Shown here piece after piece: positions 1 to 5,732 of a stretch of 9,822 nucleotides of DNA; position 1 is the first letter of the stretch; each line of letters opens with the position of its first letter. This stretch comes from a virus (taxonomy: Duplodnaviria; Heunggongvirae; Uroviricota; Caudoviricetes). Below the pieces are notes generated by a model. That model was not told the origin of the DNA and ran no database searches. It worked only from the letters and a program-made list of their open reading frames with translations. The translations under genes were made by a program, and so were the position numbers. Location: IMG/VR virus record IMGVR_UViG_2537561934_000018; one strand, given 5' to 3'.

Positions 1-960
1 TTACTCCTTGTTCATTGCGTACAGCCCATTAACCAGAGCAAACTGTGGCACCCCGTCCGCGATGAAAGTCGCATTAACTCCGCAGGCTTCGCGGATAGCG
101 GGTGCCACAATCTCCGCCCCGCCACCGACAACCATCACCCGCCCGTAACCCGAAAAAACCGCCAGCGCGCGGATCACGCGTTGTTTCAGTGTTTCTTCCT
201 TTTCACGAATAACCGCCATCAGGCTGGCGTAATGCGCGTCATTGTGGATGTGCTGGCGCAGCCAGGCTTCATCATGGCGATGTTCGATAATGGTATTGGC
301 GATGTGGTGACTGGTGCGCATACCGTTAGTGGCCATCACCGACAGTACGGCATCGGCCATCAGAGAAACGCCTACGTGTGGATCGCAAAACACCTGGCTG
401 ATACCTGCCAGTTGCCCCTGAACCTTTGCCACATCCAGCGTGGTTCCGCCCAAATCCACAATCAGCAGGGATTCAAACGGACTCATGTCAGCCAGTGCCT
501 TAAAGCCAGCCGGAATGGATTCAGGCATAACCCGCACGTTACGGATAGTGAATGCTTCGCCGTTCTGGTACTCCACCGGGCGCATAACGTTCGCTTTTTT
601 GCGGTTGATGTTGGCCATGTCCGGCTGTGCGTTTGTGTCGAAATATTCGCTCAGTGGCAGGGTGACAACCACATCCACTTCCTGTGGTGTGATGCCTGAT
701 TTGACCAGCGCGTGATGAATGGCAATTACATTCACATCGCTGTACTGGTATTGCGTGTCGGTCGTCTGGACAAAGCGATCGCTGACCGGATCAAAACCAT
801 AGCGCACGCCATCAAGCATGTAGTTCGCGGGCTGCGTGCCACCGAACGGCGCAGACCATTCCGACTTGAAGCTGTTTGGGCTGATGGCGTTGCGGCGTTC
901 GCCGTTCTCAGTCCATGCCAGCTTGATGTTGGTGGAGCCGTCATCGATACAAATTTTCAT
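1..960 (-). CDS. ParM/StbA-family actin-like ATPase (319 aa), complete ORF
   Basis: ORF track 1..960; stop TAA is the reverse complement of 1-3 and ATG is at 960-958, preceded by an AAGGAAAAG Shine-Dalgarno. N-terminal IDDGSTNIK motif plus DLGGTT and VVGGGA motifs are typical of actin-fold ATPases. The N-terminal ~110 aa closely resemble plasmid R1 ParM (StbA) as I recall it. The start overlaps the last 20 nt of the upstream A gene. Confidence 0.8.
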   Translation of the reverse strand: MKICIDDGSTNIKLAWTENGERRNAISPNSFKSEWSAPFGGTQPANYMLDGVRYGFDPVSDRFVQTTDTQYQYSDVNVIAIHHALVKSGITPQEVDVVVTLPLSEYFDTNAQPDMANINRKKANVMRPVEYQNGEAFTIRNVRVMPESIPAGFKALADMSPFESLLIVDLGGTTLDVAKVQGQLAGISQVFCDPHVGVSLMADAVLSVMATNGMRTSHHIANTIIEHRHDEAWLRQHIHNDAHYASLMAVIREKEETLKQRVIRALAVFSGYGRVMVVGGGAEIVAPAIREACGVNATFIADGVPQFALVNGLYAMNKE

Positions 961-3859
961 GTCGCTTTTCCTTATGTTGATTAATTAATCGTTTACGGGA
1001 TTCTGAAATCCCGTTTTTGTCCTGTTTTATGCGCGCTTCATATATCGCGGCGCGTTTTTGCTCATTTACGGGATTTGTGAATCCCGTTTCTGTCTGTTTT
1101 TTGTTTCCACTGGTCAGGCCACCCCGCAGCAGGTCTGCTTTGCGGCGGGCGCGTTCAGTGGTTTCACTGATTCTCTGTGCGTGCTCTGCGTCGCGGATGG
1201 CGCGCAGCATGTCAGAAAGCACGGTAACGGGTGTTTTCATGGTGTTCTGGTCTTGCTGAAGTGTGGATGCCAGGCGTGCGGCGGCTTCGGGGTCTGATGT
1301 CCCCAGCTGTTCCAGATAGCTGGCGACCGGGTTATGGCGGATCTCCGTACTGCTTACGCCGTGGTTACGGCTCAGGCGCTGCCAGAGCTGCGTGATCCGG
1401 CTGTCCGGTCGGGTATCCGGTTTGCGTACAATTTCAAATCCCTGCGGTGCAATGTTGCTGCCGTCAACGTACAGACTGCCGCCCCGTAACAGGTGCTGCA
1501 TCTGCTGTTCACCGATATGCAGGCCGAGAGATTCAGCAGACTCCCGCCATTCTTTAGCGAGTAGTTCGTGGTTATCAGGCAAAGGCCGCTGCTGTTTGCG
1601 GCTCTGTGTCCAGCTCTGCATTTCATCACGGCTGTTTTTTGCCTGTTTGTCACGAAGCGAACGCATCAGCGCCCGGCGTTCGTGCCGTTTCAGTGAGCGC
1701 ATCCATTCGTTCACTTCAACGCCGTCAGGGAGCTGCGGCCACGGTGCTGGCCGTTCTTCCGGCTGTTCTGTCCCGTTGTTGTCCGTTTCCTGTACACGGG
1801 GACAGTTATTGCCACGAGTCCAAGGGGCGGCAGGGCCGCCCTGAAGGTCAAAACCATTTTCGCGGGCGCTGTCTTCCGCTTCCGGTTTACGTCTTACCAG
1901 CTTCCAGTTATCCGGATGCGTGCACACGCGGGAAGACTCCCCGATGAGCGGCGACCAGATCCCGTAAATCTGTACGCTCTGTTCGCCGTAATCGTTCAGC
2001 CCATCTGCGAGGTCGTAGGCGGTGCGAATCAGGTAGTCTTTGCGTGGAACAAGTACGCCGCCCTGTTTCTCTATGTAGGTGGCAAAACATCCGGCATCAG
2101 CGGCAGCGAGTACCGCATCCATTGCGTCATCCTTCAGCCGTTGCGGGCCTTCCGGGTTGCGTGCCATCTGGCTGGCAAGGCGGCGCAGCTCACGCCACAC
2201 TTGACGGGAGGGGATGCCAAAGAACTGGAACTGGCGGACGCGGTGAAGGCGTGCCCAGCCGATGGCGCGCTCCACGCTCTCGGCCATTGATTTTCCGGTT
2301 TCGTGGTCAACGCGTGGCTTGCCCGTTTTCGGGTCGATGCCATCCACGGCGTGGCTGTCCAGGTTCTTTCCGATGTAGGTGGCGATGTAGCTGGTTGGCG
2401 TGCCTTTTGAGCCGTCGACGTACTCCGCCTTAAAGCGCGGAGTAATATCATTGCCCAGTTCGTGGCGGTCTTCCTGAATGGCAATATCGCGGGTGTGGGA
2501 CACAATGGTGTCGATTTCTTCCGGATGAGCAAAGACCATCATATGCCAGTGCACGGTGCCGTCATGGTGAGGCTCCACCGTGCGGATGCCATACCAGCGC
2601 AGGCCGTCGCGGTTCAGTTTTTTGCGGACCGCCGCAAAAAACGTGTTAACCAGGTAATCGCTGGAGTCGCGCATGGTGGCCCCGTTCCATTTGGGATTCG
2701 GATGACCGTTCTCTGTTGTGGCGTGGTATTTTGACGGGCAGGTGACAGTCAGAAACACCGCTTTGTCGCCACGGGCTTCGGCCAGAAGTTCCAGTCCCTT
2801 CATGGTGGCCGTCATTTCTGCCTTACGGTGAACCGGGTTACTTACTCCCGCGTAATACACCGTCTCGAGATCAATCGTGAACCCGTCTTCATTTTCCAGC
2901 ATGAAACTTTTCAGGAAATCGCGTGTTTTCTCGCGCTGTGCGCGAAACTCGCTTAACGCGTCCTGGCTCAGATAGGGTGATGTTTTTCTGGAAACCAGAC
3001 AGGCGGCGCGGAGTTGTTCTTCCCGCCACTCACAACGTAACAGCCACAGTTTGCGTTTCCACCAGTCCGCACAGGTCAGGCGAAGGATTGCGCCCGGCAG
3101 CAGTTCCGTGTCCGGTTCGTTCCTCCGGTCTTTGTCTGTTGTCAGTGCGTCATAATGTGGAGGCATGGCGTGCAGGTGTAACGCCATGCGGGCCAGCATC
3201 TGATACGCCTTCAGCGTTACATCCATGGTCAGCTCGCCATCTCTGGCACCGAAACCATCACAGAGAGTCTCAAAGGTGCTGCTGAACATTGCCGCCGTCA
3301 TGGTGGCCAGCGTCTGTATCTGGTGCTTGTTAAGCTGCGGCAGGTAAAGCAAATCGTCCAGGCGTTCGCGTCCGGCAAGGGCGCGATAACCCGGTGTCAG
3401 CCAGCGGCTGTCGGTGCGCTCCAGACGTTCGAATATTTTGCGCAGGGTTCCGTGCGCGTAGCGTTCTGCCTGCCAGCTCTTTTTGCCTTTCCGGCGATCG
3501 ACTTCCTGTTTTTTGCGCAGGAAAGAGAGGTGGCGAATAAGCGGATCGCGCAGATAGGACGGCAGCAGGCGCAGCGAGGCCATGGCTTCATCCACCGCGC
3601 CGCGTGCCTGTTTTCTGGCGTCTCCTGCCAGTGTGATGGTTTTGTCCTGTTTTTCCTGTGCGTCCAGGCTTTTATTAATCAGGTTGCCCAGCGGCGTGGC
3701 GGAGAACGCCGCATCAGCCATTTCCTGGCGGCGCTCGTTCTCTGCCCGGTAGGCATCCAGCCAGGAGGAAAGCGCGGATTCAGGAGCGGGGATCCCCGTT
3801 CCTTCACGCCCCACTGCGTGGCGCGGTTGTTGCCAGTCCCTGATGTACTCCGTTGACAT
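941..3859 (-). CDS. P2 gpA-family rolling-circle replication initiator (HUH endonuclease), 972 aa
   Basis: ORF track 941..3859; ATG at 3859-3857 with a GGAG about 10 nt upstream. HUH-type motif HWHMMVF is encoded at 2531-2551 and the paired-tyrosine motif YIATY at 2375-2389 (verified by reverse-complementing the DNA). This matches the two-tyrosine active site described for phage P2 A protein. Position immediately downstream of the cox-side early genes is as in P2. Confidence 0.8.
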   Translation of the reverse strand: MSTEYIRDWQQPRHAVGREGTGIPAPESALSSWLDAYRAENERRQEMADAAFSATPLGNLINKSLDAQEKQDKTITLAGDARKQARGAVDEAMASLRLLPSYLRDPLIRHLSFLRKKQEVDRRKGKKSWQAERYAHGTLRKIFERLERTDSRWLTPGYRALAGRERLDDLLYLPQLNKHQIQTLATMTAAMFSSTFETLCDGFGARDGELTMDVTLKAYQMLARMALHLHAMPPHYDALTTDKDRRNEPDTELLPGAILRLTCADWWKRKLWLLRCEWREEQLRAACLVSRKTSPYLSQDALSEFRAQREKTRDFLKSFMLENEDGFTIDLETVYYAGVSNPVHRKAEMTATMKGLELLAEARGDKAVFLTVTCPSKYHATTENGHPNPKWNGATMRDSSDYLVNTFFAAVRKKLNRDGLRWYGIRTVEPHHDGTVHWHMMVFAHPEEIDTIVSHTRDIAIQEDRHELGNDITPRFKAEYVDGSKGTPTSYIATYIGKNLDSHAVDGIDPKTGKPRVDHETGKSMAESVERAIGWARLHRVRQFQFFGIPSRQVWRELRRLASQMARNPEGPQRLKDDAMDAVLAAADAGCFATYIEKQGGVLVPRKDYLIRTAYDLADGLNDYGEQSVQIYGIWSPLIGESSRVCTHPDNWKLVRRKPEAEDSARENGFDLQGGPAAPWTRGNNCPRVQETDNNGTEQPEERPAPWPQLPDGVEVNEWMRSLKRHERRALMRSLRDKQAKNSRDEMQSWTQSRKQQRPLPDNHELLAKEWRESAESLGLHIGEQQMQHLLRGGSLYVDGSNIAPQGFEIVRKPDTRPDSRITQLWQRLSRNHGVSSTEIRHNPVASYLEQLGTSDPEAAARLASTLQQDQNTMKTPVTVLSDMLRAIRDAEHAQRISETTERARRKADLLRGGLTSGNKKQTETGFTNPVNEQKRAAIYEARIKQDKNGISESRKRLINQHKEKRHENLYR
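995..1087. repeat. Tandem pair of perfect 8-bp-stem palindromes (ACGGGATT-N4-AATCCCGT) 73 bp apart, flanking a GC-rich palindrome, each followed by a T-run on the + strand
   Basis: Hairpin 1 is 995-1014 (loop CTGA) followed by TTTT to 1018; hairpin 2 is 1068-1087 (loop TGTG) followed by TTTCTGTCTGTTTTTT. Flanking sequence is about 85 percent identical over ~38 bp. A GC-rich palindrome at 1031-1054 is followed by TTTTT (1055-1059). All lie inside the last ~55 codons of the A ORF and 35-130 bp upstream of the ParM-like start. Confidence 0.6.
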
Positions 3860-4901: not shown

Positions 4902-5732
4902 TTACTTCACGGGAACGAACGGAACAGCGGTGTTACTGGTCATGTATTGCGGCAGCGTGCCGTTCCATTTGTTGATCGCTTCCAGCTCCATAACGCCGGG
5001 ATTCTGGCGCAGAGCTTCGCCGCGTAAACGAATGGCGTCGGCTTCAGCCTGGGCTTTTGTGCGAATGGCATCGGCCTGTCCGGCAGCTTCTGCGCGCAGC
5101 ATGTTGGCTTCAGCTTCGCGTTGCTTGACTTCCTGTTCACGTTGCAGGGTTTTCTGGTTTGCCGTGACTTTGGCGTTAATGCTGTCGATAACGGTTGGCG
5201 GATATTCCGGTTTACCGACATAAGAGAGGCTCATGACCTGAATGCCGATGGGGGTCATCTCTTCCTGAATATCTTTAAGTGCTGAATCCAGCAGTTCAGA
5301 CTTACCACCGTCGATAAACTTATCGGTGGTCATTTTGCTGGCCAGTCGGTTGAGTGCATCGGCGATCTTCTGGCGCAGGTCAGTGTCGGTAATGTCATCC
5401 ACGCCTTTGCGGTAGGTCTGAAACACTGTGGTAACTTTGGATGGATCAACCTTGTAGGCCACACCGATGTGATAGCCGATGGTTGTGCCGTCACTCATCT
5501 GGAAGCTGAACGGCTCATCGTAGGTCTTCATTTGTTTGAAGGTCGGGAAGATGTAAACCTCTGTATTCCAGCCTGTCCAGTAGCGGCCAACGCCAACCAC
5601 TTCACCGACTCCTTTGTCGTCGCCCAGTTTGTTGACTTTGATGCCCACATTACCTGGCTCAACGCGATCGCAACCAACCAGCAGGATGGCGGCAAAAAGC
5701 GGGATAATCTGAAAGAGTCTGAATTTCTTCAT
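4902..5732 (-). CDS. SPFH/Band-7 (stomatin/prohibitin/HflKC-like) domain lipoprotein, 276 aa
   Basis: ORF track 4902..5732; ATG at 5732-5730 overlaps the upstream stop (ATGA), with an AAGGAA Shine-Dalgarno. The N-terminus MKKFRLFQIIPLFAAILLVGC is a lipoprotein signal with lipobox LVGC, followed by Asp at +2. The central region resembles an SPFH domain and the C-terminus is the Ala/Glu/Arg-rich coiled-coil tail typical of HflK/HflC and prohibitins. Fold assignment is by eye. Confidence 0.65.
   Translation of the reverse strand: MKKFRLFQIIPLFAAILLVGCDRVEPGNVGIKVNKLGDDKGVGEVVGVGRYWTGWNTEVYIFPTFKQMKTYDEPFSFQMSDGTTIGYHIGVAYKVDPSKVTTVFQTYRKGVDDITDTDLRQKIADALNRLASKMTTDKFIDGGKSELLDSALKDIQEEMTPIGIQVMSLSYVGKPEYPPTVIDSINAKVTANQKTLQREQEVKQREAEANMLRAEAAGQADAIRTKAQAEADAIRLRGEALRQNPGVMELEAINKWNGTLPQYMTSNTAVPFVPVK

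Follow-up and report, generated by a model that had tools for sequence, protein, structure and literature searches.

Repeats of the parC type lie upstream of parM in the partition systems of R1, pB171, pSK41, and pCW3, and likewise in srpC of the SXT/R391 elements (PMC5016525, PMC9426499, PMC4489591). Rousset et al. (PMC9122126) observed a putative partition system in about one quarter of P2-like phages without settling its role. The partition genes themselves are already known from RefSeq annotation and from the literature, and we found no description of their cis-acting site in the literature searched. Here we analyze a 9,822-nucleotide stretch of Caudoviricetes DNA (IMG/VR record IMGVR_UViG_2537561934_000018; hereafter "the window"), which belongs to a P2-like prophage of the P88-like group (genus Xuanwuvirus, family Peduoviridae). 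We propose that this prophage carries a type II ParMRC cassette in the cargo hotspot after replication gene A. Furthermore, we consider it probable (about 0.7) that positions ~979 to 1110 form the cis-acting, parC-like site at which the adaptor protein ParR binds, and that this site possibly serves as an operator as well. The initial annotation had listed a parC-like centromere or operator for the adjacent ParM among several candidate roles, and this is the role that comparison supports through the ParR gene, the canonical position, the linkage to parMR, and the conserved cores. What appears to be new is a parC-like architecture built from two dyad-symmetric units rather than from arrays of direct iterons, and overlapping the 3' end of a replication gene.

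The region is laid out as follows, with repeat sequences written for the sense strand.

1 to 960, minus strand: parM, encoding an R1-type actin-like segregation ATPase of 319 aa (Pfam StbA_N, 1.8e-82; ParM C-terminal domain, 6.3e-69).
969 to 973, minus strand: the parM Shine-Dalgarno sequence AAGGA, read from the sequence.
979 to 990: a 12-bp palindrome, GATTAATTAATC, that includes the ATTAAT box at 984 to 989.
989 to 1028: the proximal 40-nt direct-repeat unit, 78% identical without gaps to the unit at 1062 to 1101, at a spacing of 73 bp.
995 to 1014: the proximal dyad, ACGGGATT-TCAG-AATCCCGT, centered at -44.5 from the parM ATG; intergenic in relatives.
~1031 to 1055: a central, imperfect, GC-rich palindrome between the dyads, with two divergent alleles in the population.
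1062 to 1101: the distal 40-nt direct-repeat unit, an A-tract followed by the dyad.
1068 to 1087: the distal dyad, ACGGGATT-CACA-AATCCCGT, centered at -117.5 from the parM ATG, in the last codons of gene A.
941 to 3859, minus strand: gene A, a P2-type replication endonuclease of 972 aa in the window (Pfam Phage_GPA, 1.5e-129).

The repeat array with its dyads spans -127 to -35 relative to the parM ATG and is thus immediately upstream of that gene. As first described, the two dyads are perfect 20-bp palindromes of the form ACGGGATT-N4-AATCCCGT, with identical 8-bp arms, different central 4 nt, and a separation of 73 bp. The surrounding repeats had been given as ~38 bp long and ~85% identical; the 73-bp spacing stands, but we measured 40 nt and 78% ungapped identity. 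Likewise, the GC-rich palindrome placed at 1031 to 1054 is present between the dyads, but it is imperfect and extends over ~1031 to 1055. This central element might act as a spacer or a loop region, or it might be a third, weak site. The ATTAAT box, which lies 24 to 29 nt before the parM ATG and is flanked by the proximal dyad and the Shine-Dalgarno sequence, may be a -10-like element or a further site for a protein. Judging from shuffles, chance alone would give 0.92 single perfect palindromes with an 8-bp stem in a window of this size. For the pattern CGGGATTNNNNAATCCCG, the window contains two exact matches, compared with 0.32 expected even when up to three mismatches are allowed, so two palindromes that share the same arms are not a product of chance. 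The dyad motif was found neither in the rest of the window nor in 26.5 kb of a related phage.

The window ParM matches the structure of R1 ParM (PDB 1mwk) with an E value of 7.3e-93. Position 1 of the window is at the parM stop codon, and a small ParR-like gene had been predicted just beyond it. In relatives this prediction holds: in P88 and in E. coli AH21B060, a gene for a 103-aa protein of family PF10784 (Plasmid_stab_B; R1 StbB/ParR) begins 4 nt after parM (E value, 1.6e-24). The P88 protein is gp18 (YP_009113061), and the location of the gene is given below.

Beyond window position 1: parR, at 2461 to 2775 in the relatives L013 to L092 and at 4986 to 5297 in L001.

A ParR profile searched against PDB matched pB171 ParR (2jd3) over its full length (E value, 7.8e-16); the profile was needed, as a phmmer search with the single ParR sequence gave no match in PDB. 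A PADLOC scan of ParM, ParR, and the two downstream proteins gave no defense-family match, and an NCBIfam search gave sub-threshold matches only. The components that define a type II ParMRC cassette are found together, namely, a ParM ATPase, a PF10784 adaptor encoded directly downstream (in relatives), and a conserved ParR C-terminal tail. All alleles and lineages keep this tail, ...N(I/A)xxLFP(E/D), whereas the middle of the protein is hypervariable, and the tail presumably interacts with ParM. Within the P88-like group, ParR is a mosaic in which the first 18 residues are nearly invariant, the tail NI(R/Q)xLFPE is conserved, and the middle falls to ~52% identity, whereas the neighboring ParM remains 99% identical.

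The locus resembles several known systems, among them R1 parC. The ParM proteins are homologous, the R1 ParR belongs to the same family (PF10784, StbB), and the repeats lie directly upstream of parM in two blocks around a central segment, with both regions being A-rich. However, R1 parC consists of ten 11-bp direct iterons that flank a defined promoter (PMC5016525), whereas here two 20-bp dyads lie 73 bp apart near no recognizable sigma-70 promoter. In addition, the carrier here is an integrating prophage and not a plasmid, and its distal site overlaps the last codons of a replication gene. The par1 system of pB171 supplies the closest solved ParR (2jd3), and the match includes both the N-terminal ribbon-helix-helix (RHH) strand and the C-terminal ...LF tail, although the recognition strand reads KKYTLYL in pB171 and TRRISFYL here. 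In pSK41, a ParR dimer of dimers occupies a 20-bp unit (PMC5016525, PMC9426499), which offers a model for a 20-bp dyad carrying two RHH dimers. Unlike the dyads, however, the pSK41 site comprises four contiguous tandem 20-bp direct repeats, resides on a Gram-positive plasmid, and is served by a ParR without sequence similarity.

Two further systems are comparable in setting rather than in sequence. The srpMRC locus of SXT/R391 integrative and conjugative elements is a type II partition system in a normally integrated element and stabilizes its excised circle (PMC4489591), but SrpR has no detectable ParR homology, the element is a conjugative one rather than a phage, and its repeats have unrelated sequences. 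Similarly, the Corynebacterium prophage CGP3 carries genes for an actin-like protein and an adaptor whose binding sites are repeats upstream of the operon (AlpAC/alpS). That system is induced early after excision and is required for efficient phage DNA replication (PMC4446434). Its actin-like protein is only distantly related, its site consists of 24 short TTAAnnG repeats, and both host and phage type differ.

The most telling comparison is with diverged relatives, which were reached via protein searches and contig look-ups. An alignment of ParM against IMG/VR returned the same 80 close relatives, and one genome-contig scan returned only three near-identical loci. Syntenic A-parM-parR cassettes were found in P2-like prophages of Hafnia (L007) and Plesiomonas (L010) (ParM 62% identical in both), as well as in a second Hafnia lineage (L181/L182) and in Serratia and Enterobacter-like lineages (L011, L174, and L176; ParM 54 to 58% identical). 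Four of these lineages, counting the P88-like group, each have exactly two dyads of the form GGG-N10-CCC, 72 to 73 bp apart and at nearly the same distance from parM. The first bases of the GGG triplets relative to the parM ATG are as follows.

P88-like: -125 and -52.
L181 (Hafnia metagenome-assembled genome): -124 and -51.
L007 (Hafnia): -128 and -55.
L010 (Plesiomonas): -131 and -59.

In 20,000 shuffles per lineage, such a dyad pair arises with a frequency of no more than 5e-5. A four-way alignment shows that the invariant positions are essentially the GGG/CCC cores, the ATTAAT box, and the start codon, and that the remaining region has diverged. The dyads differ in their inner parts. The Plesiomonas sites, GCGGGACAACAAAAACCCGA and GCGGGACAACACTAACCCAC, have inner arms that are not complementary, so they cannot form a stable hairpin, and they are not followed by a T-run. 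The Hafnia L007 arms are imperfect, and L181 has lost the outer G of the right arm in both copies. Despite these imperfect or lost arms, the GGG-N10-CCC cores and their spacing are retained in L007 and L010.

The four lineages with such pairs also have in common the ParR recognition beta-strand TRR(I/V)SFYL. Lineages with the strand NRKISFYL (Serratia and Enterobacter-like) instead carry a ~62-bp inverted repeat, GGGAAC-N4-ATAGAAAAAT ... ATTTTTCT-N4-GTTCCC, around a GC-rich dyad, and an IncFII plasmid ParR (NRKCSFYI) is associated with TTTCTATA iterons. Within the P88-like group, dyad haplotype does not correlate with ParR allele class (alleles ~52% identical), a comparison that is uninformative given that the recognition strand is invariant there.

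The dyads are linked to the cargo module and not to gene A. In two E. coli prophages (L185 and L186), the 3' ends of gene A are 92 to 95% identical to the window, but other cargo follows, and the dyads are absent. This cargo consists of a Dam methylase and an AAA ATPase in one case and of an AAA ATPase and an S8 peptidase in the other. Homology of both prophages to the window is lost at ~1130 to 1140, which marks the cargo-module junction after gene A (the P2 hotspot), and the last ~20 to 30 codons of gene A are swapped along with the cargo. In contrast, every TRR-type parMR cassette that was found has the dyads. Because a near-identical gene A with other cargo lacks them, the site belongs to the parMR cargo module.

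The initial annotation emphasized hairpins and suggested that homologues be checked for compensatory changes. For this purpose, we folded both strands, tallied 71 distinct 700-nt P88-like sequences, and counted pairs over 16 dyad variants, and we observed no meaningful covariation in the dyad stems. The GGG/CCC core of the distal dyad is nearly invariant among the 71 sequences, and the four central bases of the dyads vary freely. Substitutions in the arms are single and uncompensated, both in the distal copy (GGGAcT in 24 of 71 and ...CCCGc in 5 of 71) and in the proximal copy (gCGGG in 25 and CCtGT in 13). The distal changes are G-U compatible on the plus strand only and the proximal changes on the minus strand only, and this opposite pattern means that no single RNA strand is favored. 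Paired cells amount to 85.2%, compared with 82.6% in shuffles, and the inner pairs depart only through unpaired cells. Two genomes have the same substitution in both dyad copies, again uncompensated in the partner arm, which would be explained more readily by gene conversion, or by selection that keeps the sites matched, than by selection for pairing. Both strands give strongly negative RNA folding z-scores (-5.0 for the plus strand and -5.9 for the minus strand), and equal folding of this kind is a property of palindromes.

Given the noncomplementary inner arms in Plesiomonas and the uncompensated population variants, the constraint seems to act on duplex sequence, outer-triplet symmetry, spacing, and position and not on a hairpin. 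Constraints of this type are expected from a DNA-binding protein that acts as a dimer or tetramer, whereas an RNA or cruciform stem would impose pairing. The emphasis on hairpins was therefore not borne out, but the accompanying statement that conservation is at the DNA level, and does not reflect a protein repeat, was right.

By analogy with R1, pB171, and pSK41 (PMC5016525, PMC9426499), we infer how ParR might bind, and with what stoichiometry, wrapping, and regulation; to what end it might do so is inferred from the precedents of srpMRC and AlpAC/alpS. As an RHH adaptor, ParR would bind duplex DNA at the two 20-bp dyads through their GGG-N10-CCC cores. Its dimers would occupy half-sites, probably with two dimers per dyad (a dimer of dimers), as on the 20-bp pSK41 unit. 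Because 73 bp corresponds to ~7 helical turns, the dyads would face the same side of the helix, amid phased A-tracts. Cooperative binding between and around them could then wrap ~100 to 130 bp into a segrosome, whose clustered and conserved ParR C-terminal tails (...NIRALFPE) would grip ParM filaments by their ends. Such filaments may push apart or position phage genome copies that are circular, excised, or replicating.

The same ParR complex probably also throttles parMR expression, because the proximal site lies 35 to 54 bp upstream of the parM start. Since no sigma-70 consensus promoter was found, parMR may be transcribed through gene A as part of the early operon, in which case the ParR complex would act as a brake. 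Another possibility is that the ATTAAT box belongs to a weak promoter that has the proximal dyad as its -35 region.

Several observations weigh against a parC-like site. First, the characterized ParR proteins all bind direct repeats, usually 4 to 10 of them (PMC9426499), and parC sites comprise several short direct iterons (10 to 20 bp), whereas here there are only two strong units, each internally dyad symmetric. Second, promoter scans of the window and of P88 identified no sigma-70 consensus promoter in or next to the site, unlike in R1 parC. Third, although AA dinucleotides show a 10.5-bp periodicity across the 128-bp region, with 4 of 2,000 mononucleotide shuffles reaching the observed power, and the phased AAAC/A-tracts hint at weaker additional sites, a shuffle of this kind is a lenient null. 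Fourth, the lineages share ancestry, and their agreement does not amount to four independent observations. Fifth, GGGAAC is also present in the NRK-type lineages, which blurs the correlation between ParR type and motif. Finally, a natural variant survives with one dyad only.

This variant (L036; IMGVR_UViG_2657245439_000011) has undergone a 73-bp deletion between the repeat units, so that one dyad remains and the end of gene A is joined directly to the proximal site.

Among the alternatives, the one that fares best, although we regard it as unlikely, is that the three palindromes are Rho-independent terminators on the plus strand, either blocking antisense or convergent transcription into the replication gene or determining the 3' termini of an antisense RNA that covers the parM start. 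The two hairpins and their T-rich tails pass a plus-strand terminator scan in the window and equally in P88, the central GC-rich palindrome is followed by TTTTT(T)G, the plus-strand RNA folds well, and the distal-copy variants are compatible with G-U pairing on this strand. However, the minus strand folds equally well, and the proximal-copy variants create A-C mismatches on the plus strand. There is also little for such terminators to act on. No plus-strand genes are annotated within ~2.5 kb upstream in P88, where every gene from the portal end to gene A is on the other strand, and our scan identified no plus-strand promoter-like site upstream, with two other terminator-like sites intervening. 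Furthermore, terminator features are not kept: Plesiomonas L010 lacks both complementary inner arms and a T-run, and Hafnia L007 has imperfect arms, yet both keep the cores and the spacing. The A-run beside GGGAAC is retained in lineages without any hairpin, and it is more likely to be part of a protein site or of a bend. The earlier suggestion of stacked plus-strand terminators for an antisense RNA thus fits the scan of the window, but it describes features that are not conserved and would serve no transcription unit that we could find.

It is less likely still that the dyads are bound by another protein, such as phage A, Cox, or a host nucleoid protein, for replication (as an origin or enhancer) or for module recombination. 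Consistent with this idea, the P2 origin lies inside gene A, the distal dyad overlaps the end of that gene, and the site is near the cargo-module junction. However, the junction at ~1130 to 1140 is upstream of the dyads and not within them. The distribution of the dyads, which are absent next to a near-identical 3' end of gene A with other cargo and accompany every TRR-type parMR cassette found, also argues against this idea.

The annotated origin nick of P2 (NC_001895 position 29892, GCGCC^TCGGAGTCCTGTCAATAAC, with the surrounding sequence GCCGCGCC^TCGGAGTCCTGTCAATAACTGT) aligns via the A proteins to window positions ~1805 to 1842, GCCGCCCCTTGGACTCGTGGCAATAACTGT, which is ~700 bp away from the dyads. 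This segment inside gene A is the probable rolling-circle origin of the phage. We therefore rejected a replication origin at 941 to 1110, as had been offered in the initial annotation: the nick homologue is elsewhere, and the dyads do not travel with gene A, being missing from L185 and L186.

We also find it improbable, to a slightly greater degree, that the hairpins act within the sense mRNA at the A-parM junction of the early operon, as processing or stability elements or as modulators of parM translation. The lack of a separate promoter in our scans makes it probable that an A-parMR message covers the region, and the folding z-score of the sense RNA is strongly negative. Nonetheless, the common distal variants GGGACT and CCCGC would produce C-A mismatches in this RNA, covariation is essentially nil beyond that of shuffles, and the inner stem is lost in L010. 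Moreover, the proximal hairpin stops 21 nt before the Shine-Dalgarno sequence and would not occlude it. Least likely of all is that the repeat is incidental, for example, a functionless duplication kept by linkage, for although the whole region is conserved among very close P88-like relatives, making conservation there of little informative value, and L036 has lost a copy, the cores, spacing, and position are selectively retained where their surroundings have diverged.

A parC-like centromere thus remains our preferred reading, and it narrows the likely cis-acting site to a ~130-bp fragment with two defined dyads, which renders the system testable. It would represent a compact alternative parC architecture in which the dyads are 7 helical turns apart. 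If the site works, the phage would be a further case, besides SXT/R391 and CGP3, of an integrating element that uses actin-like segregation in its episomal phase.

The cassette is widespread. A 701-bp query across the dyad region matched 14 phage records at 96 to 99% identity and 1,371 of 5,426 complete E. coli genomes (about one quarter), nearly all of them in the chromosome and with O157:H7 strains among them. A more far-reaching proposal, which we offer tentatively and consider doubtful, is that a minimal but working centromere of two dyads is present in about one quarter of E. coli P2-like prophages, that a ParR tetramer occupies inverted half-sites on it in place of the direct iterons bound by every characterized ParR, and that ParMRC segregates or positions the excised, rolling-circle-replicating genome. 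If true, an integrating P2-like phage would gain a plasmid-like carrier state or, as in CGP3, an actin-assisted stage of replication. Still more speculatively, because the cassette occupies a hotspot for anti-phage cargo, the centromere might act as an incompatibility weapon against competing elements with the same parC.

One complete E. coli assembly (strain Z1323PEC0009) includes a 34,461-bp circular record (NZ_CP148288.1; L180) that comprises an entire P88-like phage with int, cox, A, parMR, and structural genes and is listed as a non-mobilizable "plasmid." Either the assembly captured an excised replicative form, or the circle is maintained as an episome; the record is compatible with an episomal phase but proves nothing. 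A second unusual record is a 226-kb contig labeled Vagococcus sp. WN89Y (NZ_JBQPOM010000071.1; L004), which carries this enterobacterial prophage module (ParM 98% identical) and is probably a contamination or a mislabeled assembly.

Two single-base differences are particular to the window and affect where gene A ends. The T-run at 1056 to 1060 (an A-run on the sense strand) has five bases, compared with six in relatives, and there is one extra base at ~1020; each difference is unique among 85 related sequences. Because the homopolymer is one base shorter, the frame is shifted and the open reading frame of gene A reaches position 941, yielding 972 aa compared with 940 aa in the annotated relatives P88 and AH21B060 (32 additional residues). 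In these relatives, gene A ends at the equivalent of window positions ~1037 to 1040, and the consensus-type sequences have a TGA stop codon at ~1038 to 1040, in the loop of the central palindrome. In relatives with the consensus sequence, the proximal dyad is thus intergenic, and of the two dyads only the distal one falls within gene A, among its final ~15 codons.

The two repeat copies are indeed read in different frames of gene A in the window (73 mod 3 = 1), as had been pointed out, but the description of both hairpins as embedded in this gene applies to the window only. The homopolymer difference stems either from a sequencing error or from benign variation at the C terminus, and the annotation of the gene A tail, which it lengthens, can be corrected accordingly.

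Two other palindromes near these genes were observed. Within the catalytic domain of gene A, at 2618 to 2645, there is a perfect palindrome with a 10-bp stem, TTTTTTGCGG-ACCG-CCGCAAAAAA, that encodes NTFFAAVRKKLN. It resembles a bidirectional terminator, although it is located mid-gene, and its exact sequence is absent from P88. In P88, a strong hairpin with a 10-bp stem, CATCAGGGCG-GATG-CGCCCTGATG (L001:4957-4980), directly follows the parR stop codon and likely marks the end of the parMR transcription unit.

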